From Candidatus Hydrogenedentota bacterium (GTDB lineage Bacteria; Hydrogenedentota; Hydrogenedentia; Hydrogenedentales; SLHB01): 64,000 nucleotides of DNA. The translations under genes were made by a program, and so were the position numbers. The stretch is taken from assembly GCA_045863335.1 (NCBI GenBank), contig BTVY01000001.1, forward strand, positions 1 to 64,000, in the 5' to 3' direction. The notes under the pieces are model-generated. The model did no database searches. It was given only the letters and a program-made list of their open reading frames with translations, and was not told where the DNA came from. The first letter of the stretch is position 1, and every line of letters starts with the position of its first letter. Shown here one piece after another: positions 3,400 to 45,474 of the stretch.

Positions 3400-3750
3400 A
3401 TCATCAATCATCATTCCGCATTCATCATTCTGCACCCCCCCCTTGAATCGTCACAGAATCGTAGGACGCACCCTCCGAATCACCAAGGCCGCCGCCATCA
3501 CTCGGTTTCCGCACAACTTGATGTCCGAGGTAGATTTACAGAAGCGAGATCTTCCAATCCGCAATCCGCAGTCCCCAATCCGCAATCGACACCCCCCCTT
3601 GAATCGTCAAAAAAAACGAAGGGGTGTTCCCTATTGAGTATCGAACTCGGCAGCCCAAAGAGAATCATGGGCAGGATGCCCATGGCACCTCGAAGACTTG
3701 GGCAGGGATGCCCAAGGCACCTCGGGGAGCTTCCGGGCAGGATGCCCGGT
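3400..3750. repeat. Composite repeat tract: heptamer runs, a direct repeat and three GGGCAGGATGCCC REP-like palindromes
   Basis: (aatccgc)n at about 3555-3588; acccccccttgaatcgtca twice (about 3434 and 3590); gggcaggatgccc variants at about 3669, 3700 and 3735. Confidence 0.65.
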
Positions 3751-3776
3751 TTGCGGAGAACTTGCGCAATCTGCGA

Positions 3777-4832
3777 TCACTCCCGCTCGACCGGATCACG
3801 CTCCAGCGACGTGCCCAGCGCGTTGAGCTGCGCCATGAACTCCGGCGGAATCACGCCCGTGGCGCTGATGGGGACTTCCCAAGTCACGACGCCGCCGTCG
3901 CCGATGATGCGGCGGGTGATGGCGATGACGGTGTCGTCGGAATAGCGCGGGGGGCTGCCGGCCCACTGCGGGCCGAGGAAACTGAGCATCTGAAACTGGG
4001 CGCCGTTCAGCCAGCGGCCGGGACATTGGACCTTCTCGGCGTCGTTGATTTCGCCGGCGGTGTAGTCCTCTTCGGAGGACAGCGTGATGACGGGGTCGAA
4101 CACGCCGGGGTTGAAGGCGACGACGCTGTCCGGGTTTCCCGCACGGGCGGCGCCGGCGAAGCTGGCGAAGTTGGGCGGCTCGTCGTGTCTATACATCGCG
4201 ATGGGGTAGTAGCACCCGTCGAACCACCAGCCGGACACCTTCGTGCCCCAGCGGGTCGACCATTCCGCGATGACCGTTTCCCACTTCCGCTGGAACGCGT
4301 CGAAGCGGGGGTCGCCGCCGTCGGGTCCCCCTTCGGGATGGCTCCAGATGGGGTACTTGCCCGGCGCCCATTCGAGGGCGGCCATGGCTTTCGGGTCGCG
4401 GTCCGGCGCGCCCGCGGGCAGGTAGACCATGAGCCGGATGTCACGCGCCGCGAGCGCGTCCGCAAGGTCCGCGACGAGATCGCGCCGGGAACAGGTGCTC
4501 GGGTCGTTGCCGACGAAGCGGTCATAGGCCGCGTTGGGCGAACAGTAATAGCCGGAATTCTGGCCGAGGGTCAGCACAAAATACTTGGCATGCACGGAAT
4601 CCAACTGGTCCGCCAGCGCCTCCACGTCGAATCGGTCGACCACCGCGTTCCAGTTCTCCGGAGTGGGTTTGAGGCCCTTCAACGCGATATCGGAGAGGTA
4701 ATGACAGAACACGCCCCATTGCGCCTCGTACATCCATTCCGCCCGGTTCGAATTCGGCACCGGCGAGTCCGGTTCCTGCGCACCAGCCCCCATCAGTCCC
4801 AGCGCCAGAACGAGAAGCAGCCTCGTCGTCAT
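3777..4832 (-). CDS. Secreted glycoside hydrolase, alpha-L-fucosidase (GH29/GH107)-like TIM barrel
   Basis: Signal peptide MTTRLLLVLALG; WGVFCHYL, FDVEALADQL, YFVLTLGQ, RDLVADL, GWWFDGCY. Confidence 0.7.
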   Translation of the reverse strand: MTTRLLLVLALGLMGAGAQEPDSPVPNSNRAEWMYEAQWGVFCHYLSDIALKGLKPTPENWNAVVDRFDVEALADQLDSVHAKYFVLTLGQNSGYYCSPNAAYDRFVGNDPSTCSRRDLVADLADALAARDIRLMVYLPAGAPDRDPKAMAALEWAPGKYPIWSHPEGGPDGGDPRFDAFQRKWETVIAEWSTRWGTKVSGWWFDGCYYPIAMYRHDEPPNFASFAGAARAGNPDSVVAFNPGVFDPVITLSSEEDYTAGEINDAEKVQCPGRWLNGAQFQMLSFLGPQWAGSPPRYSDDTVIAITRRIIGDGGVVTWEVPISATGVIPPEFMAQLNALGTSLERDPVERE

Positions 4833-5066
4833 GACCTGTCCCCCGTGTTCGTTCATCGGACAAATCCTGCATCGTTGGACGCTCGCTGCGATCGGTTTCA
4901 CCGCCGGCGATTGAAAAAGTCGCACCAGGATGCATTGCCGCCTCCGCGGGAATTCATCCTGTCAAGAAACGTGTCTTCGAAGCTATCCAGAGTCCAACCA
5001 GCCGCCGGAAGCAGTACGTGCCCGACCCGCTTCACCGCGGGTGCCGCGTCAGACGAATTGACAGGA

Positions 5067-5321
5067 CTACTTCTTCTTCACGGCCACCCGGTACAGAATC
5101 AGCAGCAGCACCGCGCCGCCGATCGCCAGCAAAAGGCTTCCGATATTGAACCCGGTGACTGTGCCCAGCCCCAGGGTGGAGCCAATAAACCCGCCTACGA
5201 AGGCTCCCGCGATTCCGATCAAGATCGTCACAATAATCCCTCCGGGATCCTTGCCCGGCATGATGAATTTTGCGAGCGCGCCAACAATCAATCCCATCAC
5301 GATCCACGATAGAATTCCCAT
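5067..5321 (-). CDS. GlsB/YeaQ/YmgE family (transglycosylase-associated) membrane protein
   Basis: MGILSWIVMGLIVGALAKFIMPGKDPGG, typical 84-aa family sequence. Confidence 0.92.
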   Translation of the reverse strand: MGILSWIVMGLIVGALAKFIMPGKDPGGIIVTILIGIAGAFVGGFIGSTLGLGTVTGFNIGSLLLAIGGAVLLLILYRVAVKKK

Positions 5322-5404
5322 GGCTCACCTCCCGGATCCGTTCGCCCTGAATATCGACGGCCCAGCGCTTGGGTTCGTCAGCGGAACAATGTGGCTTGAT
5401 TATA

Positions 5405-5917
5405 CTACAAATCTCGCCGTGCCGGCCGATTGACGTCGATTGCGAAGGCCTCCCTTTCGAACCAGTTGTCCCAATACGCGCGGCGGCCGCGAAGAACCTG
5501 CCACAGACTCGACAGCGCGTACGCGGGAAGGAAGAAAGGTCCCCAGCGCTCGTACTGCCGCACATGCACCAGCTCGTGCTCACGGGATGCGGTAAGCGCC
5601 GATTCGCTGACGCCGATAACAACGTGGCCGAGAGTCATCGCGTTGAAGGACAACATGCGCGGCAAGGAAGCGATGGCCCGGCCACCCCATCCCCCGCCAA
5701 CCTCGACAACGCCGGACACCACCCGCGCGCGTCCGCCCAGGCTCAGCAGGATCAAGGCCGCGAGCGCGCCCAGCAGCGTATTCGGCGATGCCCACGTATA
5801 CGCGGCGGCGCGAGCTACCATTTCACGGAAGTTCTTTGTCGGCTTGGTAACGCAAGGGCTGGCACCACCTTCCGTCAGGGTCACTGTGATAAGGTGCGGC
5901 GTACGATCCTCGCTCAT
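5405..5917 (-). CDS. Hypothetical protein with HExxH motif (DUF4157-like)
   Basis: AMTLGHVV..HELVHVRQYERWG..NWFEREA; true start may be nearer 5821. Confidence 0.65.
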   Translation of the reverse strand: MSEDRTPHLITVTLTEGGASPCVTKPTKNFREMVARAAAYTWASPNTLLGALAALILLSLGGRARVVSGVVEVGGGWGGRAIASLPRMLSFNAMTLGHVVIGVSESALTASREHELVHVRQYERWGPFFLPAYALSSLWQVLRGRRAYWDNWFEREAFAIDVNRPARRDL

Positions 5918-6009
5918 GCACCTGCCTCATCGACCACGCAGGTCATCATCATGTCTATATTACAGCCTGGTCGGCTCAGTTGGCTCGATAGAGTCTACCC
6001 GCCGGGCGG

Positions 6010-6381
6010 TCAAACGGTATCGTCCACCTCCTCAATAACCTTCACAGCCTCTGCGCGAATGAAGATCCGCGCGCCGGTCGCGGTTTCGCAGACAACCATC
6101 TGTGAAAGCGAGAACGGAATGCCTCCCTTCGCGGAGCTTTGATCTGTGAAGCCAACAAAACGAACGCTGGCGAAAATCTTACCGCTGTTCAGATGTACGT
6201 TTACAAGTCTGCCGTCCTTAATAAAACGCTTCAGCTTCACGATGTCGAAACTGCGTGAGCGGCCCTTGATATATCCCACGGTGGTAAAAAATACAGTCAA
6301 GACCATAATCCCAATACAGATGGCGGCCACGAAGCCGAACACTTGGTAAAAAGTTTCCATGGGTTTGAAGTTGCCTTTCAC
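6010..6381 (-). CDS. Hypothetical membrane-anchored protein (lower GC)
   Basis: N-terminal TM helix followed by a small beta-rich domain; AT-richer codons. Confidence 0.5.
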   Translation of the reverse strand: MKGNFKPMETFYQVFGFVAAICIGIMVLTVFFTTVGYIKGRSRSFDIVKLKRFIKDGRLVNVHLNSGKIFASVRFVGFTDQSSAKGGIPFSLSQMVVCETATGARIFIRAEAVKVIEEVDDTV

Positions 6382-6681
6382 CGTCTCGTTACATCATTCA
6401 GAACATCTTGGAATCACTAATCTGCGTAATTGCGCCCCGGCTCCCCAATCGCCTAGGCCGTTATTCCTCAATATCGGCAGTAAAAGCGTTCAGCTGTCGT
6501 ATGTAACCGAAGACAGATTAGGGCAAAGTAATGAAAACTGTCAATGGACGAATGCCTTCCGGTTTCTATCCAGCGTGTCGTGGATGAGTTCCGTAGTCAG
6601 CGCCTTGACGCATCCGTTTACTGCCTCAATTGTGAATGCGTGCTTCCCTGGGTTACTGTTTTGGTTGGGGAGGGCAAAGCA

Positions 6682-9144
6682 ATGTATCTGATGTGTACGG
6701 TGATTTACGCGGCGGCAATTATTGGTGCGACACCTGCGCCTGCGGCGATGGATGAAGCGCGGCAGTGGGCGACGGCGAAGTTTTCCGGGGCGGTGGCGAC
6801 GAGCGATACCGCGCAACCATCGTTACACGTCATCGCGAACAACGATCCCGTGCAGCAGAACAGCCGCAACGGCAAGCCAATGCGGATGGGCGGGCAGCAA
6901 TACTCGCGGGGATTGTTTTGCCACGCCAATAGCGAAGTGATCGTGCAAACGGGCGGCCCGGCCAGGACGTTCCGCGCGGTCGTCGGGGTGGACTCGAACG
7001 ACCAGACCTCGGGCGGTCGCGGCAGCGTCGTCTTCGCCGTGCGCGTTGGCGGCAAGGAGCTGTGGCGGTCAGCATTGCTGCGCGAAGGGATGCCGGTGGT
7101 GCCGGTGGAGGTCGCGCTGGACGGCGCGACCGAATTCACGTTGATCGTGGAAGACGGCGGCGACGGGATCTCCTGCGACCAGGCGGACTGGGCCGACGCG
7201 GAGGTGGAACTGGCCAACGGCGACGTACTTTCGCTTGGCGACATCCCCATCGTGGCCGCGCAGAAGGAACCGTACACGTCGGAGCCGTTCTTCTCGTTCA
7301 CGTACGGAGGCGTAGCGTCGAGCGAATTCCTGAAGAACTGGAATGCGAAGCGTTCGGAAAAGCGAATCGACGAGGCGCGCACCGCGTATACGATTACGTA
7401 TACCGATCCCAAGACCAAACTCGAAGTTCGGTGTGAAGGCATTCACTATGCCGATTTCCCCACCGTCGAATGGACGGTCTACCTGCGCAATGACGGCGAC
7501 GCGGACACACCGCTCATTACGGACCTTCGTGCGATCGACACGCGCATCCAGCGAAGTAGTGCCGATGAATTCATCCTGCACCACCACACGGGCGACAACT
7601 GTACCGCGAACAGCTACGAACCTCACGCTGCGTCCCTCCAACCCAATGCGAGTCTGACGATTGCCAATGCGGGCGGGCGGCCCACGCAGCACAACTTCCC
7701 CTATTTCAACCTTCAGGCCGGTCAGGAAGGCGTTGTCTTCGTGGTCAGTTGGGCCGGACAGTGGACCTCCGACTTCGTGCGCGACGGCTCCAACGGCGTG
7801 ACCCTGCGGGCGAAGCAGGAGGATACCGAGTTCGTCCTGCATCCGGGCGAGGAAGTGCGGACGCCCATGATCGTGCTCCAGTTCTGGCGGGGCGACAGGG
7901 CCCACGCGCAGAACGTGTGGCGTCAGTGGATGATCGCGCATAACATACCGCGCCCCGGCGGCAAGCTGCCTCCCCTCCCCCAGCTCGCCGCGTGCAGTTC
8001 CCACCAGTTCGGCGAAATGATCCACGCCAACACGGAGAACCAGATTTTCTTCGTCGACAGTTATCTGAAGCACGGCATGAAGCTCGACTACTGGTGGATG
8101 GACGCGGGCTGGTACATCAACGAATCCGGCTGGCCCCAGACCGGCACCTGGGAGGTCGACCGCGGCCGTTTCCCGAACGGTCTCCGCGAGATCTCCGACC
8201 ACGTGCATGCGAAAGGCATGCGGACGCTCCTGTGGTTTGAACCTGAGCGGGTCGCCAAGCAGACCTGGCTCGCCGACGAGCGCCCGGATTGGGTCCATGG
8301 CGGGACCAACGGTGGTCTCCTGAAATTGGGCGAACCGGAAGTGCGCGACTGGTTGACGAACCACGTCGATGATATTCTCGTCGACGAAGGCATCGACCTG
8401 TACCGTCAGGATTTTAATATGGACCCCCTGAATTTCTGGCGGGAGAACGACGCGGAAGATCGGCGCGGCATCACGGAGAACCGTCACGTCACTTCGTATC
8501 TTGCCTATTGGGACGAACTCCGCCGTCGTCACCCGGACATGCTGATCGACTCCTGCGCCAGCGGCGGCCGCCGCAATGATCTCGAAACCCTGCGCCGGGC
8601 AGTGCCGTTGCTGCGCAGCGACTACATCATGGAACCAGTCGGAAATCAGTGCCATACCCACGTTTTGTCCGAGTGGTTCCCCTTCTACGGCACGGGGACG
8701 TCCAAGACCGATCCCTACCTCGTGCGCAGCGTGTTGTGCCCCCACTTCATCGCCTGCTGGGATATGCGCGACGACGCGCTCGACTTCGACAGACTATCGC
8801 GTGAGATCGCCGACTGGCGGGACTACGGGAAGTATTATTTCGGCGACTACTACCCGCTGACGCCGTACACGCTCGCGAACGATCAGTGGATTGCCTGGCA
8901 GTTCCACGACGACTCGTTGCGTGGCGGATTCGTGCAGGCCTTCCGCCGCGACGCCAGTGTGTACGAGTCGGCTCGCCTCCCGCTCCACGGTCTCGACCCG
9001 GCAAAGCGGTACGCCGTACACGACATCGACACGCCAGACGATACCGCCACGTTCAGCGGCGCAGAGCTGCTTGACGCCGGACTGCCCGTCGCGATGCCGG
9101 AACGCCCAGACGCTGTCATTCTCGTCTACCGCGAGGCGGACTAG
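6682..9144 (+). CDS. Secreted alpha-galactosidase (GH36-like) with N-terminal NPCBM/NEW2 domain
   Basis: Signal peptide; NPCBM motifs (RGLFCHANS, GSVVFAV, DGGDGISCDQADWAD); WWMDAGWY, LLWFEPE, YRQDFN, IDSCASGGRRND. Confidence 0.88.
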   Translation: MYLMCTVIYAAAIIGATPAPAAMDEARQWATAKFSGAVATSDTAQPSLHVIANNDPVQQNSRNGKPMRMGGQQYSRGLFCHANSEVIVQTGGPARTFRAVVGVDSNDQTSGGRGSVVFAVRVGGKELWRSALLREGMPVVPVEVALDGATEFTLIVEDGGDGISCDQADWADAEVELANGDVLSLGDIPIVAAQKEPYTSEPFFSFTYGGVASSEFLKNWNAKRSEKRIDEARTAYTITYTDPKTKLEVRCEGIHYADFPTVEWTVYLRNDGDADTPLITDLRAIDTRIQRSSADEFILHHHTGDNCTANSYEPHAASLQPNASLTIANAGGRPTQHNFPYFNLQAGQEGVVFVVSWAGQWTSDFVRDGSNGVTLRAKQEDTEFVLHPGEEVRTPMIVLQFWRGDRAHAQNVWRQWMIAHNIPRPGGKLPPLPQLAACSSHQFGEMIHANTENQIFFVDSYLKHGMKLDYWWMDAGWYINESGWPQTGTWEVDRGRFPNGLREISDHVHAKGMRTLLWFEPERVAKQTWLADERPDWVHGGTNGGLLKLGEPEVRDWLTNHVDDILVDEGIDLYRQDFNMDPLNFWRENDAEDRRGITENRHVTSYLAYWDELRRRHPDMLIDSCASGGRRNDLETLRRAVPLLRSDYIMEPVGNQCHTHVLSEWFPFYGTGTSKTDPYLVRSVLCPHFIACWDMRDDALDFDRLSREIADWRDYGKYYFGDYYPLTPYTLANDQWIAWQFHDDSLRGGFVQAFRRDASVYESARLPLHGLDPAKRYAVHDIDTPDDTATFSGAELLDAGLPVAMPERPDAVILVYREAD

Positions 9145-36542: not shown

Positions 36543-36803
36543 TCACGACAATGGCGGAATCTTCTCAAAAGGCATGAATTTTTGTCCGAGATCCCAATCG
36601 GCAAGCAGCTCCTGCCGGTGCAGTGTTGCCCATTCACTGACCAAACCCATCGCCCGAGGAGGCAACGAACCAGCAAGAACGGCCAACGAACGAATCTCGA
36701 TTAAAGCTTCGTCATCCCCGTAGTATGCGTGGAAGTGAGGCGGATTGTGCTCGTTAAAGTACATTCGGATCACGATACCGTAGAAGCGGGAGATCTCAGG
36801 CAT
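36543..36803 (-). CDS. DUF4160 family protein (putative TA toxin)
   Basis: MPEISRFYGIVIRMY..HNPPHFHAYY..WATLH..IPPL. Confidence 0.9.
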   Translation of the reverse strand: MPEISRFYGIVIRMYFNEHNPPHFHAYYGDDEALIEIRSLAVLAGSLPPRAMGLVSEWATLHRQELLADWDLGQKFMPFEKIPPLS

Positions 36804-37083
36804 GGGCGTTTTCGCGATTCAGATTCGCGAATAATTCTTCCGGTTCCTTTCCTGTGGCCTCAAGGTAAAGGGCATCGGGACAAAGATCGAGACTGTCATC
36901 CCACTGGAGTTCGCCGGCTGGACCAATCTCCACCTGCCGAAATCGATCCTCATCGTTCCACTGCGCAAAGACCCCGCGGCCGACCAAGTGGGAGAGGTCA
37001 ACTTCGCCGGACTCTCCTGTGTCAAAGGTTAGCGCCAAACGGAAGTTTGGGAGAACTTTCACGTCCGTGATCTTTCGCATCAT
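36796..37083 (-). CDS. DUF2442 family protein (putative TA antitoxin)
   Basis: LALTFDTGESGEVDL..F..LQWDDSLDLCPDALY. Confidence 0.88.
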   Translation of the reverse strand: MMRKITDVKVLPNFRLALTFDTGESGEVDLSHLVGRGVFAQWNDEDRFRQVEIGPAGELQWDDSLDLCPDALYLEATGKEPEELFANLNRENAHA

Positions 37084-37270: not shown

Positions 37271-39067
37271 ATGCGACTGACCAACCTCGCGTTTTGCCTG
37301 GGTATCTTCACCATCTTCGCGACGAGTTCCTGCGCCACGTCCATGGAGCACAGCGTCTCCGGCTCGCTGACCAAGTGGTCGCCGGTCACGATCGACTTTC
37401 GCGGTCCGTTGGCAGCGGCGTCGGGCAGTGACCCGAATCCATTTCTCGATTACCGGCTGCAAGTCGAATTTACCGGTCCGAGCGGTGCGGAATACAGCGT
37501 GCCAGGCTACTTCGACGGCGACGGCCAGGGGGGTCTCAACGGCAACACGTGGCGCGTGATGTTCTCGCCGGATGAGACCGGCAAATGGAGCTACCAAGCG
37601 TCATTCCGGAGCGGCGACGACGTGGCCGTCGCGCTGGAACCGGATGCGGGCGAACCGGCTGCCTTCGATGGCGCGAAAGGATCCTTCGAAGTCGAACCGC
37701 AACCGGACGACGCCCCCGGTTTCTATCGTTGGGGACGGCTCGAATACGCGGGCGGCTTCTATCTGAAGTTTCGCGACGGAAACTATTGGATCAAAGGCGG
37801 CACGGACAGTCCCGAGGATTTTCTCGCCTACAACGGTTTCGTGAACACGCCGCGCCGGCCGCACCGGTATGATGCGCACATCGCCGATTGGCAGGACGGC
37901 GATCCCGACTGGGGCGATGGACATGGCAAAGGGATCATCGGCGCGTTGAATTATCTCGCCTCCATGCAGGTGAACAGCATCTACTTTCTTCCCATGAACA
38001 TCGGCGGTGACGGAAAGAACGTCTGGCCGTTCCTCGGTGAGCCGGATGCAGGCGGCAGCCCGGACAACGACAACGTTCACTACGATCTCGCGAAGCTGCG
38101 TCAATGGGGAATCGTGTTTGACCATGCACAGCGCAAAGGACTGATGCTGCACTTCGTCCTCAACGAGGCGGAAGAACCCAACAAACGCGAACTCGACGAC
38201 GGCGCGATCGGCGTCGAGCGCAAGTTGTACTATCGCGAACTCATCGCGCGCTTCGGCCACTTTCCCGCGCTGCAATGGAACCTCTGCGAAGAGTACAACC
38301 TTCGTTATCGTTTTGATCCGGAAGTGGTGAAGAGCTTCGCGCAGTACATTCGCGATGTCGATCCCTACGACCATCCAGTCACCGTCCACCACGCAGGCAA
38401 ATGGCAAGAGGCCTGGGGCCCGTTCCTTGGGGATGACCGCTTCCAGGTCACGTCGTTTCAAGTGAACGAACTGGACGTGGTCGAGGCGTGGCGGCAACAG
38501 TCGCGCGATGCCGGATTCCCGCAGGTCATTGGCATGGACGAGTTTTTCCCAGACAAGACGCACCCCGACAATATCGAGCGCCATCGCAAGGAATACCTCT
38601 GGCCCATTTACTTCTCCGGCGGCAACGTGGAATTCATCCTCGACGATCTCCTCAAGACGGAAGACTTCCGCCGCTACGAGGCCCTCTGGCAATACATGGC
38701 CCACGCGCGCGCCTTCATGGAAACCCACCTCCCCTTCTGGGACATGGAACCCCGCGACGACCTCCTCACCGGCGAATCGGAGTTCACCGGCGAAAACAAT
38801 GTCGTGCAAGGGCAAGTCTTCGCAAAAAGAGGTGACATTTACGCCGTGTACCTCCCAGTCGCCACCCAAACCGGCACGCTCGACCTCACGCGAGCCCCCG
38901 GTACCTTTCAGAAACTGTGGTTCAATCCTCGCACAGGTAACTCCGTAATCGATAAGCCCATCGAAGGCGGTAAGTTTCTGGCGCTGAATGGCCCGCCCGA
39001 TTCTTCGGGTGAAGACTGGGTCGTACTGGTGAGAAAAAGCCGCGAAGTGCTGACCCGACCACGCTAG
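37271..39067 (+). CDS. Secreted DUF5060-domain glycoside-hydrolase-like protein with C-terminal beta domain
   Basis: Signal peptide; NPFLDYRLQVEFTGPSG..VPGYFDGDG..WRVMFSPDETGKW; WNLCEE; LWFNPRTG..DWVVLV. Confidence 0.78.
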   Translation: MRLTNLAFCLGIFTIFATSSCATSMEHSVSGSLTKWSPVTIDFRGPLAAASGSDPNPFLDYRLQVEFTGPSGAEYSVPGYFDGDGQGGLNGNTWRVMFSPDETGKWSYQASFRSGDDVAVALEPDAGEPAAFDGAKGSFEVEPQPDDAPGFYRWGRLEYAGGFYLKFRDGNYWIKGGTDSPEDFLAYNGFVNTPRRPHRYDAHIADWQDGDPDWGDGHGKGIIGALNYLASMQVNSIYFLPMNIGGDGKNVWPFLGEPDAGGSPDNDNVHYDLAKLRQWGIVFDHAQRKGLMLHFVLNEAEEPNKRELDDGAIGVERKLYYRELIARFGHFPALQWNLCEEYNLRYRFDPEVVKSFAQYIRDVDPYDHPVTVHHAGKWQEAWGPFLGDDRFQVTSFQVNELDVVEAWRQQSRDAGFPQVIGMDEFFPDKTHPDNIERHRKEYLWPIYFSGGNVEFILDDLLKTEDFRRYEALWQYMAHARAFMETHLPFWDMEPRDDLLTGESEFTGENNVVQGQVFAKRGDIYAVYLPVATQTGTLDLTRAPGTFQKLWFNPRTGNSVIDKPIEGGKFLALNGPPDSSGEDWVVLVRKSREVLTRPR

Positions 39068-39202
39068 ATATCGTTTACATTTGGGTACTTGCGTGGTCGG
39101 ACTTTCCGAACTCCTACAAAAAATGAACGTGTACTGCACAGGACTATTCCGCTATAGTTCATTATCCGATATGATGAGCCTAGACACAGGGGAGTTTCTC
39201 GC

Positions 39203-41476
39203 ATGAAGCACGTGTTCATATCACATGCAGGAGCCGACAAAGAGATTGCGGAGAAGCTCTTTGAGGATTTGCGGAACGCTGGACACTCCACAGTAATCGA
39301 CATCCACGAGCTCCAACTTGGCAATGACCTCGTGGACTTTATTAACGATAGCATTACGGATGCCCACACGATCCTATTGTTATACTCTCGCCACACCCCC
39401 CAAGCCCGCTGGCAGAAGCTAGAGATCAACGCTGCCGTTTGGAACGAGGTCGAGCAGGACGGTGGAACTTGCATCGTCGTTCGCCTAGACGACACTGACG
39501 TACCTCCAACTCTTGGACCTAAAGTCATGGGGCGGTTGGAGACCGATAAACCTGAATCATACAAGACGCTTCTCGATCAACTCTGCGAAACACTTCTACC
39601 GAAAGAAACAGCTTCTTCAATTGTCGCCAAGGCATTCCGCAGCAACTCTCAAAACCCATTCCGCCGTGTTCGCGCTGAGTTCTTCGAAGATAGACCCGAC
39701 CTTCTTGCTGCAACCTTCGCCCCACCGGAGGCTCTCAAGGCGGGTGCTCTAGAGGAAATGAAGCCCTGCTTCCTAGAAGGATCTCGCGGTACGGGAAAGT
39801 CTATGTTGCTGCTATCCTTGCGAGCTCGCAACTATTTGGCAAGATACAAGCAGGTACCGGAGCGATTCTCGATATTTGGATTCTACCTGAAACTGACACG
39901 AGGCGCTCTGTGCAACGCGGGCCTTACCGTCGACGAAACTTCGTTGCTAGATTTCCCCGCTAGAGAACGAACACAGATTGTCGACATGTCATCACAAGAG
40001 ATCTATCTTTGCCTTCTTGAGAGCCTTATCTCCGAAATAGTTTTTTGCACTCGCGAAGCCACACTTGAACTGACTCCGTCCAAGGAGAAACTGATCGCGG
40101 ACGAGATCGCGGAGCTTTTAATACCCCACGAGGCCAATCGGCCAACCACCCTGGAGGAACTAGCCGATCTTCTGGCCCGCACCCATACTAGGATCGCCAG
40201 TTTTATGCGTGCGCGATTCGTCTACATGGAAGTGGGTCTAGCGCCAATAACGACTCTCGATTTGGAGTCATTCAAAAGGGCCCTGGATGCGATTCGCAAG
40301 CATATACCGCAACTTCAGGCATCGCTTTTTATCGCCCTACTGGACGAATATGAAAACCTCTTTGCTTATCAGCAACGTATCGTTAATGGAATAATAAAGC
40401 TTGCCACTCCATCGTTCTCTGTTAAAGCCGCCAAGAAACTTGGTAGTGACGATGTATCCGGCACCACGACCGGCCAAGAACTTCAAGAGACTCACGACTA
40501 CACGCGACTGATGTTGGTTTACGACGTAGAGCATTCTGAGCAACTAAGGCATTACAAAAACCTGCTCTCCACAATCGTTTCCAACCTCCTTCAGAGTGAG
40601 AATTGGCCCGCGCATAGTATTGATGCACTACTCCCAGAGGATCGCTCAATTGAAGTTGATGAGTCGAAATGGCTAGATGAAGTATCGCGTCTCTGCAAAG
40701 TGAACAAGGACGAGTTTTTGGCTTGGCCCGAGGAGCGTCGCAAAGAAAAACTAACCTACTATGGCGAAGCGGCAACTTATAGAGTTCTCTACGGCTCGAA
40801 GGGTCGCAGAAGACCTAAACGGTTCTGCGGCTTTCATGATATGGCATTCTTGAGTTCCGGCGTGATTCGCTATTTTCAAGAGTTCTTGGGTGTCAGTTTT
40901 CACATGCTCCAAGATGAGGAAACGCATGAGAAAGCGCTGTCAATTCCAGCGTCTATACAAACTAGAGCTATCCACCTAGTTTCGGAGCATAACCTTACTA
41001 CTCTAAGCCGAAATGTTGAACTGCATGGGGAAGTGCTCAAATACTTGCTTCTTGATATTGGAGATTGTCTGCGCCACAAGCTTCTAAAGCACGGGAGCGA
41101 ACCTGAGGCAGCGCGCATTGTACTCGTCGATCCTGAGAATCTGCATGATGAGAATATGGTCGCTCTACGCGAATTGATACTCGTCGGTGAGCGAGAAGGT
41201 GTGTTTCAAACCAAAGAAGGCCGACCAACGTACAAACCACGACACGGATCAGATCCGCAACCAGCTGAACTTCGACTCTGCCGAGTATTCGCCCCCGTCC
41301 TTGAGATAAGTCCTCGCTTGCGCTGGCGTACAGAGGTACGATGCGATCAACTTGCAGGGCTGCTCATTCCTGGGCTTCGCGGTCAGGCGGTTAGTAAATT
41401 GAAGAAGAGTATGGTACGCGAAGTTGGCGGCGGCGACCAGAGTGAGTTTCCACTTTCAAAGGAGATCAAGCGGTGA
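39203..41476 (+). CDS. TIR domain + P-loop NTPase (ORC/CDC6-like AAA+) protein
   Basis: TIR: HVFISHAGADK..LLLYS..WQKLEINAA; NPF motif; Walker A FLEGSRGTGKS; Walker B ALLDEYENL; LSSGVIRYF. Confidence 0.85.
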   Translation: MKHVFISHAGADKEIAEKLFEDLRNAGHSTVIDIHELQLGNDLVDFINDSITDAHTILLLYSRHTPQARWQKLEINAAVWNEVEQDGGTCIVVRLDDTDVPPTLGPKVMGRLETDKPESYKTLLDQLCETLLPKETASSIVAKAFRSNSQNPFRRVRAEFFEDRPDLLAATFAPPEALKAGALEEMKPCFLEGSRGTGKSMLLLSLRARNYLARYKQVPERFSIFGFYLKLTRGALCNAGLTVDETSLLDFPARERTQIVDMSSQEIYLCLLESLISEIVFCTREATLELTPSKEKLIADEIAELLIPHEANRPTTLEELADLLARTHTRIASFMRARFVYMEVGLAPITTLDLESFKRALDAIRKHIPQLQASLFIALLDEYENLFAYQQRIVNGIIKLATPSFSVKAAKKLGSDDVSGTTTGQELQETHDYTRLMLVYDVEHSEQLRHYKNLLSTIVSNLLQSENWPAHSIDALLPEDRSIEVDESKWLDEVSRLCKVNKDEFLAWPEERRKEKLTYYGEAATYRVLYGSKGRRRPKRFCGFHDMAFLSSGVIRYFQEFLGVSFHMLQDEETHEKALSIPASIQTRAIHLVSEHNLTTLSRNVELHGEVLKYLLLDIGDCLRHKLLKHGSEPEAARIVLVDPENLHDENMVALRELILVGEREGVFQTKEGRPTYKPRHGSDPQPAELRLCRVFAPVLEISPRLRWRTEVRCDQLAGLLIPGLRGQAVSKLKKSMVREVGGGDQSEFPLSKEIKR

Positions 41477-42417
41477 AAAGGCTCCTTCAAAGCGCCGAAC
41501 TTCCGACACATAGCGTATTGGTGACATGTTCGAGCCATGAAGATAGATGCCTCGCGTTTCTCTCCAGGATCAGTGATTGGAAACCCAAAATGGCGGTGGT
41601 ATTCCACTACGACGACGAGAACCCAAAACGTGAGAAGAATCATAGTTTGATGCTTGCCAAGCTCGAGGAAACGGATATACCCGCCCGCGAAGTAGTCTTC
41701 ACTGAACGAAGAATTGTTAAGAGCTTTCGAGAAAATACAAAACTTTTTCACGAGACACTTTTGCAGAGCGACGTACAGAACGTCGTTCTGGATATTTCTG
41801 TATTCACCAAGAGGCACTTACTCACCTTGCTTCAGTGGTTCGACGACCACAGCTTTTGGGACCATCTACACGTCGTTTACAGTGAGCCGGAAGAGTATAT
41901 CGTGTCCACCCATATACCGCTTTCCTTTGGCCTTTCGTCAATGCGACAGATACCGGGGTTTCCTGCCAGCCCAAATCTGAGCCGGCCACTTCATCTTGCC
42001 CTGTTCCTTGGATACGAAGGCGACCGTGCCCTTGCTGTACATGAGCATGTGCAACCTATGACCACCACAATGTTCATAGGCGACCCGCCATTCCGACCTG
42101 AGTGGCGGGGCAGGTCCGAACTCTTCAACCAAGAACTGATTGCAATAGTGGGTGAAGATCGCGTAAGAAATGTTGATTCTATCGACCCAATGAAGACCCT
42201 TGATGCCCTGATCCAGATTTTCGATACCGGATCGCACAGGAGCCCCTATTCTAGGGCAATCTCGCCGTTGGGTACTAAGCCTCAAACACTGGGAATATAT
42301 GAGTACTTGCGACAAACAGACGATGCACCGGCGGTTGTATATGCCAGTCCGCTTAGGCATAATCATCGATTCTCATCAAGGGGGTTCGGACCGACGTGGA
42401 CATTAAAGGGTGACTAA
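41473..42417 (+). CDS. Hypothetical protein with two tandem CARF-like Rossmann domains
   Basis: Half 1 VTCSSHEDR..VVLDISVFTK..VVYSEPEEY; half 2 LFLGYEGDR..AISPLGTK..VVYASP; GTGA overlap with the upstream gene; fold assignment is inferred. Confidence 0.6.
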   Translation: MKRLLQSAELPTHSVLVTCSSHEDRCLAFLSRISDWKPKMAVVFHYDDENPKREKNHSLMLAKLEETDIPAREVVFTERRIVKSFRENTKLFHETLLQSDVQNVVLDISVFTKRHLLTLLQWFDDHSFWDHLHVVYSEPEEYIVSTHIPLSFGLSSMRQIPGFPASPNLSRPLHLALFLGYEGDRALAVHEHVQPMTTTMFIGDPPFRPEWRGRSELFNQELIAIVGEDRVRNVDSIDPMKTLDALIQIFDTGSHRSPYSRAISPLGTKPQTLGIYEYLRQTDDAPAVVYASPLRHNHRFSSRGFGPTWTLKGD

Positions 42418-43600
42418 CGCAATGCCCCCTTCTCCATCGTATATTGATCGGTACCCCGCGAAGATGGTCCATCACTTGGCATCCAGGTTGATTGATTCCT
42501 ATGCGCGAAAGGCGACGAGGATTCTCGACCCGTTCTGCGGGTCCGGAGCTGTCTTAGTGGCTGCACAACGCAGAAGAATCCCCGCCTATGGGATAGATCT
42601 AAATCCAGTTGCGGGGCTGCTCACGCGAGTGAAACTTGAGGGATTTGACCAACGAGAGTTGGTTGGCCTCACTGAGAAACTGTTGGACTCAGCCGAGTCG
42701 GGTAAATCCTGTTTGCCCATGTCATTACCTAACAAATGCTACTGGTTTACCCCCGCAACTCTGGCCAAGATCGAGTCAATTCGTGGCGCCGCTTCCATTT
42801 CAGACCTTTGGAACTCGCGCGAGGGCAGGGCCTTGGTACTAGCGTTCGCACTAAGCATACGACTGTGTTCCAGGGCCGACCAGCGTAGTCCAAAGCCGTT
42901 TATCTCGAAACAAGCACGAAGCTCACGAGTGGGCCGACATTACGACCCATATACTATCATCAACAAAATCGTCGAGGAAATCTCCGATCACTATGGCGAA
43001 CAACGCCAAACAACAATGACAGCGTTCGGCAGGGGCGACATTGTATCCGACCGCAAATTGATAAGGTTTATGCCCGGCACCTCTCACGTGATCACATCGC
43101 CACCTTACATTAACGCTCAGGATTACTTCCGGAATTTCAAACTTGAATTGCACGCATTGGAAGGCGTATTGCCATTCCGAGTAGCAGAGCTTCGCGACCG
43201 ATTTATTGGTACTGAGCGCGGCGATTTACTCCGCCCAGTAACAAGCTTACGGATCTCGGAGAACATACGCATGCTCCCCGAACTTCCGGATCTCGCGAAG
43301 CGGAAGCCCAGACATGCTGCCATAATTCATCGTTATCTTTCGGATATGTACCATACTTTCAAACAGTTATCTTGCCACATGAACCGCAAATCAACGTTTG
43401 TGCTGGTGTGCGGTGATAACCTCGTGGGCGGAGTTCACATTGCCACCTGGCAATTGCTTGGATCGATGCTTGAGCAATTGGGCTACTGTCTGCAGGATCG
43501 CTTCGCCGATCCAATTATAGATCGGGTCCTTGCGCCAAAAAGGTGTGGCCATAAGGGACTAATCAAGGAGGAGGTCATCTCTGTCTTCGAAAGGTTCTGA
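42410..43600 (+). CDS. Site-specific amino-DNA methyltransferase (m4C/m6A, alpha-type motif order)
   Basis: YPAKM, motif I ILDPFCGSG, GIDLNP, motif IV VITSPPY; overlaps the upstream stop. Confidence 0.85.
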   Translation: MTNAMPPSPSYIDRYPAKMVHHLASRLIDSYARKATRILDPFCGSGAVLVAAQRRRIPAYGIDLNPVAGLLTRVKLEGFDQRELVGLTEKLLDSAESGKSCLPMSLPNKCYWFTPATLAKIESIRGAASISDLWNSREGRALVLAFALSIRLCSRADQRSPKPFISKQARSSRVGRHYDPYTIINKIVEEISDHYGEQRQTTMTAFGRGDIVSDRKLIRFMPGTSHVITSPPYINAQDYFRNFKLELHALEGVLPFRVAELRDRFIGTERGDLLRPVTSLRISENIRMLPELPDLAKRKPRHAAIIHRYLSDMYHTFKQLSCHMNRKSTFVLVCGDNLVGGVHIATWQLLGSMLEQLGYCLQDRFADPIIDRVLAPKRCGHKGLIKEEVISVFERF

Positions 43601-43639: not shown

Positions 43640-43677
43640 GGGCGGCTCGCGCCGGTCTTGGTGCGAGCCGCCCCTTT
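43640..43677. terminator. GC-rich hairpin between convergent genes (possible terminator)
   Basis: gggcggctcgc..gcgagccgccc stem followed by cttt. Confidence 0.55.
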
Positions 43678-43685
43678 GTATCCCT

Positions 43686-45122
43686 TCACGCCTCCTGCAC
43701 GACCTTGAAGCCCATAAGGTGGGCGAGGTCGTTGATGCTTTGGCTGTGGTCGCCGTAGAAGACGACGCGGTGGAGCAGAGTCATGGTATCGCTGCCGAGG
43801 AGGTCTGCGCCCCAGTTTTGGAACATGCTGCGAGCGTCGGCGACTTCGGTGACGAATTGCGTGCGGCACCCGAGTTCGTCGTGGGTCACGTCGATGATCT
43901 TGCCCGTGGACAACAGCATGGTGTCGAGATTGACGAACTTCGCGCAGGTGACCGGCTGGCCGATGCGGTTCTCCACGTCGAGCGAAACGCCCCGGTCGCT
44001 GTCGGTCTGGGTGCGGATGGTGAAGGGCAAGCGCTCGCCGTCCGGTCCGTCCATGCGCGTGGCGGACGTGCAGTGGAAGTGGATGAGCGCGTTGCGGGCC
44101 GTATCGAACACGGGATCCGTAATGAACCCCGGCACGCCAAAGGCGTAGCTGAACATCAACATGGTCAGCGTCGAATCCATGTCGCCTTCGCAAGCGCCGA
44201 CGAATCCCATGTCATTGAGTTTGCTGAACGCGAGACAGCCTTTCGCGGGTTCACCCATGCAATTGGAACTCGTAACGGCCTGCGCCCCGTGGGCAATCAT
44301 GAGTTCCTTCATGGCGAGGTAGAGCCGCGTCGCGTCGACGATTTCCTGCCGCGTGGGTTCAACGATGGCCTTGGCCTGGCCGAGCCAATAGGCTTCCGCC
44401 TCGGCCTCGGCAAGGGCCGGGTCGACCGCGTCAAACGCGGCAATCGTATCCTCCACCGTGATAGGAATCATCTCGGCGCCCCACCGCTCTTTGAGTTGCG
44501 CGCCGTCGCAGGCAGCCGGCGTACCCATAGGGCCGCGCACGACGAGGATCTTCGTGTTCCGCATGCGCGACGGCACCCGCATGAGCGCGGCAACCCGGTC
44601 GATCTCGCTCCAGTCACTGGACGGAATCGAAACCACCTTTTTGCCTTCCTTTTGCCAGAGCGGGAAGTACATCCAGCCGTGGCCGCTGAAGGGTTGCGAG
44701 AACACGGCCGTGGGCAGGCCCGCGGCGACGATCTGTTCCATGGCTTCCCGTGGCGCGCCGCCGCCGTGGCCGGACAGGTGAAACATGAGCACGCCATCGG
44801 CCTTCGGGAGCTGCTCCAGTACGGCGGGCAATTCATCCGGCGGCACCAGTTGGCCGCCCACGAATTTCACGTCGCCCAAGCGGGTTTCCAGATCCGCGAG
44901 GTAAGCCTTGAACTTGTTGATCTCTTCGGTCGGACGGGAAAGATAGATGTCGCCGGTGCGGCCGATGAACACGGAATGGATGTTGATCAGTTCGGGCTTG
45001 GGCCAACGGTCGTCGTCGAAGGCGACGGTCCGTGCGTAGCTCTTCATCTGCGATGCGAGCAATACGCCCCCGGCCACACTGCATCCCAGGAATTGCCGCC
45101 GGCTCACGCAAGAAGAACACAT
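43686..45122 (-). CDS. Tat-signal L-fucose/L-arabinose isomerase-like protein
   Basis: SRRQFLG twin-arginine motif; PAKGCLAFSKLND, GACEGDMDS, HFHCT, CRTQ, LHRVVFYGD. Confidence 0.72.
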   Translation of the reverse strand: MCSSCVSRRQFLGCSVAGGVLLASQMKSYARTVAFDDDRWPKPELINIHSVFIGRTGDIYLSRPTEEINKFKAYLADLETRLGDVKFVGGQLVPPDELPAVLEQLPKADGVLMFHLSGHGGGAPREAMEQIVAAGLPTAVFSQPFSGHGWMYFPLWQKEGKKVVSIPSSDWSEIDRVAALMRVPSRMRNTKILVVRGPMGTPAACDGAQLKERWGAEMIPITVEDTIAAFDAVDPALAEAEAEAYWLGQAKAIVEPTRQEIVDATRLYLAMKELMIAHGAQAVTSSNCMGEPAKGCLAFSKLNDMGFVGACEGDMDSTLTMLMFSYAFGVPGFITDPVFDTARNALIHFHCTSATRMDGPDGERLPFTIRTQTDSDRGVSLDVENRIGQPVTCAKFVNLDTMLLSTGKIIDVTHDELGCRTQFVTEVADARSMFQNWGADLLGSDTMTLLHRVVFYGDHSQSINDLAHLMGFKVVQEA

Positions 45123-45474
45123 GGGTACCTCCTTGGGCCGAGGCAAGTCCCCCGGCCCCGTATCCACCAGAGATCATCCGATGAAAACAAGGTCCCCGTT
45201 CCGGCAGAGCACACAGACAGAGCGAGCGTTCGGCCGCCCCATCCCCCGTTTCCGGGACGACTCATGGTGGGAGAAAATCGGCGGGTGGATCGCACCACCC
45301 TCCCCCGTGGGTTTAGTCTAGCCCTTTCCGCCGGATCTGGCAAGGGCATTCCAACGCGGGGCAATCGCTCCAAGACTTCCAAATGCTTCGGCGTGGGAAT
45401 TCATCTGCGAACGCGGAAGGCATAGAAACTGAAAAGATGGCCCCCCATTCGCGAGGGTGACGGGGTAGTGCTTC

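Follow-up and report, generated by a model that had tools for sequence, protein, structure and literature searches.

A three-gene operon in a low-GC island

We analysed the first 64,000 nucleotides (nt) of the forward strand of contig BTVY01000001.1 (GenBank assembly GCA_045863335.1) from a Candidatus Hydrogenedentota bacterium, hereafter the window, and describe in it a cluster of three genes whose middle member, here called CARF2, encodes a tandem of two predicted CARF domains and pairs with an AAA+ ATPase. Gene 1 (39203-41476, + strand) encodes a protein of 757 amino acids (aa) that combines a TIR domain with an ORC/Cdc6-like AAA+ ATPase; gene 2, CARF2 (41473-42417, +), starts with GTG and encodes 314 aa; and gene 3 (42410-43600, +) encodes a DNA methyltransferase of 396 aa. 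All three are co-directional, with a 4-nt overlap between the stop of gene 1 and gene 2 and an 8-nt overlap between gene 2 and the start of gene 3. A GC-rich hairpin with a 15-bp stem (43640-43673, +), called both as an inverted repeat and as a terminator-like site, lies 40 nt past the methyltransferase stop and is the likely end of a three-gene operon; such calls come from consensus scans, and their number in the region is not above the shuffled expectation. The three genes sit in a low-GC island (39000-43600), with a GC content of ~0.48-0.52 against 0.58-0.63 in the flanks according to the composition profile. We found no tRNA gene at 30-52 kb and no convincing direct repeats flanking the island.

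The TIR domain of gene 1 spans aa 4-122 (nt 39212-39568, +; Pfam TIR_2, E 1.8e-20) and the ATPase aa 151-707 (nt 39653-41323, +; Pfam ORC-CDC6-like, PF24389, E 1.3e-54). Among 23 orthologues of gene 1, W70 and E74 of the TIR domain, the latter a catalytic-type glutamate, are at least 90% conserved, and the Walker A residues G193/G196/G198/K199 of the ATPase, as well as D381, are invariant. When gene 1 was compared by sequence with solved structures only its TIR part found a match, and this domain matches Cat1 (PDB 9mud, E 4.1e-9). We read gene 1 as a putative effector plus switch subunit. Gene 3 matches Pfam N6_N4_Mtase (E 4.6e-10) and PADLOC MTase_II (E 1.9e-26), and carries DPFCGSG as motif I (aa 40) and SPPY as motif IV (aa 230); SPP[YF] is typical of N4-cytosine enzymes. 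The Pfam, PADLOC and NCBIfam models identified no nuclease family in the three operon proteins and no signal synthase in the operon.

Gene 2 encodes a tandem of two CARF domains

An earlier note on this DNA had claimed that the two halves of gene 2 repeat the same order of motifs, and profile comparison bore this out. The motif pairs are VTCSSHEDR (aa 17-25) with LFLGYEGDR (aa 177-185), VLDISVFTK (aa 105-113) with AISPLGTK (aa 262-269), and VVYSEP (aa 134-139) with VVYASP (aa 288-293). Profiles of the N-half (aa 8-165) and the C-half (aa 166-314), built from 83 sequences with 22-54% identity to the window protein, were aligned by hhalign over 138 columns with a probability of 96.2% and an E value of 2.7e-9, and the motifs of the two halves were paired in the register that the note had given. 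The best E value among the 81 controls was 0.0069, obtained with one of 40 block shuffles, while 40 column shuffles reached 0.037 at best and the reversed C-half gave 0.25. These results confirmed that the CARF2 open reading frame (ORF) is an internal duplication. All six motifs fall on invariant or nearly invariant columns across 25 homologues (51-57% identity to the window protein), and the invariant polar residues in this set are H22, E23, R25, D107, S109, K113, R114, H115 and R295-H298.

The AlphaFold2 model of the full-length protein, with a predicted local distance difference test score (pLDDT) of 79.6 and a predicted template modelling score (pTM) of 0.84, runs twice through a b-a-b-a-b-a-b-a-b-b topology. 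The modelled strands lie at aa 14-19, 40-46, 71-76, 103-107, 132-137 and 141-143 in the first repeat (strands 14-143) and at aa 175-179, 196-203, 231-234, 260-265, 287-291 and 301-303 in the second (strands 175-303). In the passages of Makarova 2014 (PMC4012209) that define the CARF domain, it is a Rossmann-like fold of six strands in which 5 and 6 make a hairpin, with S/T after strand 1 and [DN]X[ST]XXX[RK] after strand 4 at positions assigned to the ligand pocket. The N-half has all three features; the C-half has the fold and, of the motifs, only a G-x-K after strand 4.

Conservation at the putative pocket was counted over 35 diverse CARF2 members. In the N-half, R25 is kept in all 35 and E23 in 34, D107 and S/T109 are kept in all 35 and K/R113 in 32, and the full [DN]x[ST]xxx[KR] signature, which in the window reads D107-I-S109-V-F-T-K113, is present in 32/35. 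Strand 1 of the same half ends in S20 and S21 in the window, and position 21 is S, T or G in 34/35 members. Where the N-half carries this polar S/T the C-half has G180-Y181, so that the feature is absent from the second repeat, and its strand-4 signature has no D/N but keeps G267 (33/35) and K269 (34/35). Judging by analogy with known CARF domains, the best-conserved CARF2 residues over all clades would be those that line the ligand pocket.

A VIA-align fold search of the whole model against ~48,000 PDB representatives returned CARF proteins in all of its first 13 rows (Z 12.8-10.1), with the first non-CARF row at Z 9.7. VC1899 (Z 12.8), Can2 (12.4), Csa3 (11.6), Card1 (11.5) and Can1 (11.1) are among the matches, with SSO1393, Csm6, Csx1-Crn2, Cad1 and Cdn1 lower on the list. 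Foldseek, also run with the whole model, matched the Csm6 CARF with a probability of 1.00 and reached an E value of 5.5e-5 at best. Because most alignments on the whole-model list covered a single domain (~120-139 residues), the C-half was folded and searched separately. Its AlphaFold2 model (33 sequences, pLDDT 88.2), in which strands 5' and 6' are unresolved (pLDDT 59-67), again found only CARF proteins in the first 19 VIA-align rows (Z 12.4-7.5; first non-CARF row, Z 7.3), including TtCsm6 (Z 12.4), Can2 (Z 12.0, root-mean-square deviation (rmsd) 2.6 over 111 residues) and Cam1 (Z 10.9). A single alignment with Can1 (6sce_A) covers both halves: 231 residues, from aa 13 to 298 of the model and from 3 to 583 of the chain, at Z 11.1 and rmsd 4.0. 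Since this one alignment spans both halves, it supports a CARF-dimer-like arrangement of the two in the predicted structure.

Each half of CARF2 is therefore predicted from these models to fold as a CARF domain, the first at ~aa 14-143 (nt 41512-41901, +) and the second at ~aa 175-312 (nt 41995-42408, +). The proposal that both halves are CARF-like thus agrees with the fold searches and the Can1 superposition, and the structure modelling that the earlier note had called for returned both the duplication and, by VIA-align and Foldseek, a predicted CARF fold. Its claim that the chain carries no effector was also upheld, as the Pfam, PADLOC and NCBIfam models recognised no effector domain in it. 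Gene 2 itself has no significant Pfam or NCBIfam match. Sub-threshold Pfam matches among the 83 members include HFX_2341_N, which we take to be the former DUF6293, in 26 and Csa3_N in two. No SAVED family appeared among the Pfam matches of CARF2 at E values up to 1, and no SAVED chain among the 50 fold-search matches listed.

CARF2 is the partner of an adjacent ATPase

To describe the genomic context we used 62 loci, 36 of close and 26 of further relatives; the 26 derive from 28 annotated distant loci that whole-genome searches of four phyla had turned up, two of which (L064 and L089) are the same as close loci (L021 and L033). An ATPase gene precedes CARF2 in 60 of the 62. Among the close loci, tblastn placed a TIR-ATPase upstream in 34/36, and in four of these 34 (L005, L007 and L026 included) the ATPase match is split by gaps of ~0.9-1.8 kb. 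In a further close locus, L010, the whole three-gene cluster is spread apart by ~1.6-1.7 kb, and both the split ATPases and this spacing are as would be expected from insertion elements. L015 and L036 each represent a degraded second copy, as their genomes hold another. Among the further loci a P-loop ATPase lies directly upstream of CARF2 or is fused to it in 26/26; in 24 it scores above the Pfam PF24389 cut-off, and the ATPases of L061 and L106 fall under this cut-off and do not match the TIR-ATPase profile.

Natural fusions show the same pairing within one chain. In ten natural proteins CARF2 forms the C-terminus of an ORC-CDC6-like ATPase, at ~aa 870-1226. Nine of them are 1211-1248 aa long and carry a complete CARF2 (in P0299, a protein of 1219 aa, at aa 872-1195, E 3e-37), and the tenth is L105 (1233 aa). 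The precomputed Pfam annotation gives a Pkinase domain at the N-terminus of two of the nine, while the others match the kinase-ATPase query over 83-94% of the query's length; the N-terminus of L105 is weakly kinase-like (phmmer E 1.8e-5). The PADLOC model CARF6--CARF_STK_AAA (PDLC01925, 1187 positions) describes this architecture as a whole, with kinase-ATPases matching its positions 34-813 and CARF2 its positions 877-1179. The fused forms retain the N-half motifs and K269. A search for longer homologues with the CARF2 profile gave only P0270, which is the degenerate second copy (L015) and not a clean fusion, and a partial CARF2 fused to a methyltransferase (P0165) was seen once.

Because of this obligate gene pairing and the natural fusions we conclude that CARF2 is the partner of the adjacent ATPase and not a free-standing protein, and the two are predicted to bind each other where they are encoded separately. 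The suggestion of the earlier note that gene 2 is a stand-alone sensor consequently did not hold. The invariant core of the system is an ORC/Cdc6-like ATPase plus CARF2, and the order is effector, NTPase, sensor.

Effectors are exchanged around a constant core

In the close clade the effector is a TIR domain throughout, whereas among the 26 further loci TIR occurs in only one (L063). In these a kinase is fused to the ATPase in seven according to Pfam, and phmmer adds L103 and, weakly, L105. Separate effector genes encode HD-CE (4 loci), PRTase-CE (4), calcineurin-like (3) and PLD-like (1) proteins; SIR2 is fused in one locus and forms a separate gene in one locus of the kinase type. No effector was recognised in 3/26, so that 25/26 further loci have a non-TIR effector or none recognised. 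The Pfam families ORC-CDC6-like, PRTase-CE and HD-CE reportedly stem from Nicastro et al. 2023 in Nucleic Acids Research (NAR). One of the PRTase-CE genes (L080:4008-4934) matches the PADLOC retron 'PRTase_III-A' models (E 5.3e-46), which links it to the retron type III-A effector family.

TIR and non-TIR clades share the same N-half pocket motifs. A carefully built maximum-likelihood tree of 35 CARF2 sequences has several long branches, and its rows, where related, do not count as independent. Effector type switches 7 times on it, as against at least 11 times and on average 15.2 in 300 label shuffles, and methyltransferase chemistry switches 6 times, with a shuffled minimum of 5 and a mean of 8.5. 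On the strength of these counts CARF2 appears to co-evolve with the ATPase and the effector, and hardly with methylation type.

A DNA methyltransferase is the only other recurrent neighbour

A DNA methyltransferase adjoins CARF2 in 51/62 loci. It is full-length and downstream in 32 of the 36 close loci, degraded in two (L016 and L036) and not shown in L034 and L035. It is present in 19 of the 26 further loci, where it belongs to the N6_N4 (8), C5 (7) or D12 (4) family. Across all loci three families are thus represented: N6_N4 (SPPY/SPPF), D12 (DPPY) and C5. Known makers of nucleotide messengers were searched for in the genome of the window (99.4% complete), where SMODS, Cmr2 and Csm1 gave no match, and no Cas10 or CD-NTase was seen in the 26 annotated neighbourhoods.

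Two further kinds of enzyme were seen beside the module. A gene for the flavin-dependent thymidylate synthase ThyX (PF02511) adjoins it in 4/26 loci (L059:4244-5176, -; L100:6133-7050, -; L102:8100-9026, -; and L103:8148-9125, +). In none of these four genomes is it the sole thymidylate synthase, as ThyA is also present in G973 and G979, and further ThyX copies in G378 and G1338; this suggests that the adjoining ThyX is cargo of the module and not a neighbour with a housekeeping role. An EndoIII-like HhH-GPD glycosylase accompanies the C5 methyltransferase in 4/7 loci of the C5 type, fused in two (L059:5173-6969 and L063:5191-6972) and as a separate gene in two (L080:8018-8836 and L081:6981-7622). 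It may repair T:G mismatches that arise when 5-methylcytosine (5mC) is deaminated, or have another role in the system.

A catalogued, patchily distributed family

The family to which gene 2 belongs is already catalogued in PADLOC as CARF6, so neither the family nor its fold is new to catalogues. Ten CARF6--CARF_CARF_CARF models match gene 2, the best being PDLC01917 (E 3.6e-27 over aa 12-302), and the CARF6 models score CARF2 relatives from other loci down to E 1.4e-103. The name CARF6 is said to originate from Makarova et al. 2020 in NAR, which may also describe the tandem duplication. Makarova 2014 lists, in the passages concerned with domain architectures (PMC4012209), a "fusion of two CARF domains" and a Zn ribbon/kinase/AAA+ ATPase/CARF/wHTH family. 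Our literature search found no experiment on the CARF2-ATPase system, with Makarova 2020 and Nicastro 2023, both outside the search, possibly describing it already; for two-CARF or tandem proteins it returned Can1, Csm6-2 and reviews only. Where the sources give CARF2 relatives a name at all it is "hypothetical", and this includes the ESM Atlas clusters.

The family comprises 405 matches among clusters at 90% identity and 807 cluster representatives at 50% identity (E up to 0.001), nearly all of 300-360 aa. The window genome has one copy. CARF2 occurs in 4/135 genomes of the window's phylum, in 0/5 other genomes of the same genus, and in 11/401, 14/401 and 10/401 genomes of three further phyla (the last count includes G988, which was left out of further analysis), which over the four phyla amounts to ~2.5-3.5% of sampled genomes; its hosts include both bacteria and archaea. 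The 36 loci of close relatives came from a scan that took one genome for each species, and they are hosted by Acidobacteriota, Latescibacterota, Verrucomicrobiota, Planctomycetota, Nitrospirota, Spirochaetota and three archaeal groups. No CARF2 relative was found in a scan of viral contigs. The proteins of a Latescibacterota and a Nitrospirota genome (L002 and L008) are nearly identical, with branch lengths of 0.055 and 0.10, and those of methanogens and Nitrosopumilaceae (L031, L032 and L089) nest within the bacterial TIR-type clade; on the sequence evidence both suggest recent exchange between phyla and between domains. Such a patchy distribution is the pattern of a mobile defence module, for which an anti-phage function is a candidate role. 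In L106 two TniQ-family genes (3562-6947, -) lie directly beside the ATPase-CARF2 pair, which suggests that this module is carried on a Tn7-like element, and in L100 an ArdC-N-like gene lies near the module.

A ligand-gated switch as the probable mechanism

We consider it somewhat probable that CARF2 is the ligand-sensing input of a split switch made up of a TIR effector, an ORC/Cdc6-like ATPase and the sensor, with abortive infection by TIR NADase activity as the outcome. CARF2 would be located at the C-terminal side of the ATPase and take one asymmetric nucleotide-like small molecule, in a pocket to which each half contributes the loops that follow its strands 1 and 4. Ligand binding would license ATP-dependent assembly of the ATPase, which would cluster the TIR domains, and the resulting NAD+ hydrolysis would abort the infection.

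Several observations weigh against this proposal. Neither the S/T after strand 1 nor the D/N of the strand-4 signature is present in the C-half, and in the kinase-type clade its E182 and R185 are replaced, so that in most members (L042, L043, L060, L085, L087 and L088) G-x-E-x-x-R becomes S/T-x-N-x-x-Q/L/E with the N-half motif unchanged. Because these signature residues are missing or replaced, the second half-site may not bind ligand in every clade, and its function has possibly diverged. A conserved glutamate after strand 1 is in itself unusual for a phosphate-binding loop. Placing the motifs of both halves around a single pocket follows the analogy with other CARF proteins on predicted models, and pLDDT is 53-75 over most of aa 141-230 in the full-length model. 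A sequence-profile search of the PDB found no solved CARF, nor any solved CARF2 structure, and the Pfam model CARF_Card1 matches only 12 of the 83 members, below threshold (best E 1.6e-4). The expected binding of CARF2 to the ATPase in the split form is suggested by gene order and by the fusions. A search for RNA runs that contain the locus found none. Finally, 11/62 loci have no adjacent methyltransferase, and where there is one the sensor model alone does not account for its role.

The methyltransferase would find a ready place if the system resembled restriction-modification (RM), with the enzyme marking self, the ATPase reading unmethylated invader DNA and firing the effector, and CARF2 serving as a structural adaptor or a DNA- or protein-binding subunit with no small-molecule input. 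Methyltransferases of three families beside 51/62 loci and an operon that holds neither a nuclease family nor a signal synthase would suit such an arrangement, and ATPases of the ORC/Cdc6 clade accompany methylases in the DUF499 and SspC systems, as described in parts of PMC7641849 and PMC10853773, respectively. We nevertheless regard it as unlikely: it explains the methyltransferase and leaves CARF2 itself without a role, whereas the residues best conserved across clades are at CARF ligand-pocket positions and CARF2 holds the place of a sensor in the fused proteins. The 11 loci without an adjacent methyltransferase tell against it as well. A classical RM system would pair its methyltransferase with a restriction endonuclease, and in the operon the former is present with no nuclease family found in any of the three proteins. 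A sensor role and gating by methylation are not mutually exclusive. The earlier note had seen CARF2, with no effector of its own, as a sensor of a nucleotide possibly made by the TIR domain; the two would then be a signal and sensor pair of the Thoeris kind. TIR and CARF2 do share an operon in the window and throughout the close clade, and the catalytic-type E74 is conserved. The same core, however, is combined with effectors of the kinase, SIR2, HD-CE, PRTase-CE and calcineurin-like kinds, none of which can make a TIR product, and the N-half pocket motifs are identical across those clades; a Thoeris-like sensor would be specific to the TIR producer, and almost all further loci have no recognised TIR. 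There is also no downstream component for a TIR signal to activate. We thus hold this proposal to be highly improbable, and because non-TIR systems have the same sensor a TIR-made ligand is unlikely. The CARF pseudo-dimer of the earlier note accordingly stood as a structure, on profile statistics and two fold searches, and of its functional guesses the stand-alone role and the TIR ligand did not.

CARF2 could instead be a ring-nuclease-like enzyme that destroys a nucleotide signal, either as an off-switch or against the messenger of another system. Like the Crn1-type ring nucleases it is a CARF protein without an effector domain, it has many invariant polar residues (those listed above, from H22 to R295-H298), and Sso2081 and SSO1393 are among its fold matches (Z 8.7-11.0). 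Set against this, Crn1-type enzymes are stand-alone CARF proteins that go with type III CRISPR, while CARF2 is always paired with an ATPase, neither the genome nor the 26 annotated neighbourhoods yielded a Cas10 or CD-NTase, and fusion to the C-terminus of an ATPase suits a sensor better than a free scavenger; we consider this quite improbable. The lack of SMODS, Cmr2 and Csm1 matches in a 99.4%-complete genome also makes a Cas10 or CD-NTase messenger unlikely as the ligand in the window genome.

Returning to CARF2 as a ligand sensor, the methyltransferase is the only other recurrent gene, which makes a link between methylation and the signal or its gating probable. A more specific version, which we put forward tentatively as possible though doubtful, is that CARF2 is a cyclase-free receptor whose ligand comes from methylation chemistry, either a methylated deoxynucleotide or an adenosine metabolite of the S-adenosylmethionine/S-adenosylhomocysteine (SAM/SAH) type. 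The molecule may be m4-dCMP, m5-dCMP or m6-dAMP, freed when a phage degrades the host chromosome marked by the methyltransferase. This version draws on the combination of no synthase, a methyltransferase as the sole other recurrent gene and three interchangeable chemistries, on the extra ThyX beside 4/26 loci and on the precedent of PUA-Cal-HAD, discussed below. It has to contend with the CARF2 tree, which barely follows methyltransferase chemistry (6 changes, close to the shuffled minimum), and with the loci that have no adjacent methyltransferase. CARF domains are known as receptors of Cas10-made messengers. If the version were true, CARF signalling would reach beyond Cas10 and CD-NTase messengers, and the methyltransferase would write the precursor of a danger signal rather than shield DNA from a nuclease.

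Comparison with known systems

The fused kinase-ATPase-CARF architecture listed in parts of Makarova 2014 (PMC4012209) and modelled in PADLOC as CARF6 was verified here, and the window differs from those kinase forms in being split, in having TIR instead of a kinase and in adding a methyltransferase. Can1 of Thermus thermophilus is, according to passages of its description (PMC6981274), the one solved two-CARF monomer, in which CARF domains at aa 3-151 and 293-422 enclose cyclic tetra-adenylate (cA4); asymmetric ligand recognition is documented there, and few residues are conserved between its two CARF domains. CARF2 likewise has two non-identical CARF domains in one chain, and its model superposes on both. 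Can1, in contrast, has a nuclease and a nuclease-like domain between and after its CARF domains and is tied to type III CRISPR, neither of which applies to CARF2, and the halves of CARF2 are still recognisably similar in sequence. SAVED proteins such as Lon-SAVED and Cap4 are presented in parts of PMC9704534 as two fused CARF-like domains suited to asymmetric ligands. CARF2 shares with them the two CARF-like domains in one chain; they differ in being fused to effectors and acting downstream of CD-NTases or Cas10, whereas CARF2 has no fused effector and its genome no SMODS or Cas10 match.

The earlier note had also proposed a link between TIR signalling and a CARF-like fold; such a link is not new, given published CARF-TIR fusions such as Cat1 (PDB 9mud). 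In the passages of PMC12162218 that deal with it, Cat1 is a type III CRISPR effector that couples a CARF sensor to a TIR NADase. Its CARF is fused directly to the TIR domain and binds Cas10-made cA4, while in the window an AAA+ ATPase stands between the two, the CARF tandem is on a separate chain and there is no cyclase. PUA-Cal-HAD, as outlined in parts of its report (bioRxiv 10.64898/2026.01.15.699771), is triggered without a signal synthase by m6-dAMP from degraded Dam-methylated host DNA. The Calcineurin-CE effector family that it uses is also found in CARF2 loci; it differs in having a PUA-like sensor, no ATPase and a dependence on host Dam methylation, and by analogy the same idea may extend to CARF2.

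Defence NTPases of the STAND/Avs type have the order effector, NTPase and C-terminal sensor, with N-terminal effectors, TIR and SIR2 among them, that can be swapped. The CARF2 fusions have the same order, which speaks for a shared working logic and not for membership of the STAND clade. Unlike the protein-recognising repeats of STAND/Avs proteins, CARF2 is a CARF pair of the small-molecule type, its NTPase is ORC-CDC6-like and a methyltransferase is usual. What emerges is a widespread, putatively mobile and synthase-free module, in which a tandem CARF is connected by way of an ORC/Cdc6-like ATPase to effectors that can be interchanged and have predicted outputs of NAD+ depletion, nucleotide targeting or protein phosphorylation. 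Its value lies in the mechanism rather than the fold: the identity of the ligand would reveal which infection cue is read and why a methylase is kept without a nuclease, and the three-gene TIR version of the window is compact and suited to a ligand test.

Other genes near the operon

Convergent with the operon lies a 493-aa ORF (43686-45167, -) for which Pfam gave no match at E up to 0.001. Overlapping genes for a DUF4160 protein (86 aa) and a DUF2442 protein (95 aa) occupy 36543-37083 (-), ~2 kb upstream of the island, in a toxin-antitoxin-like arrangement.

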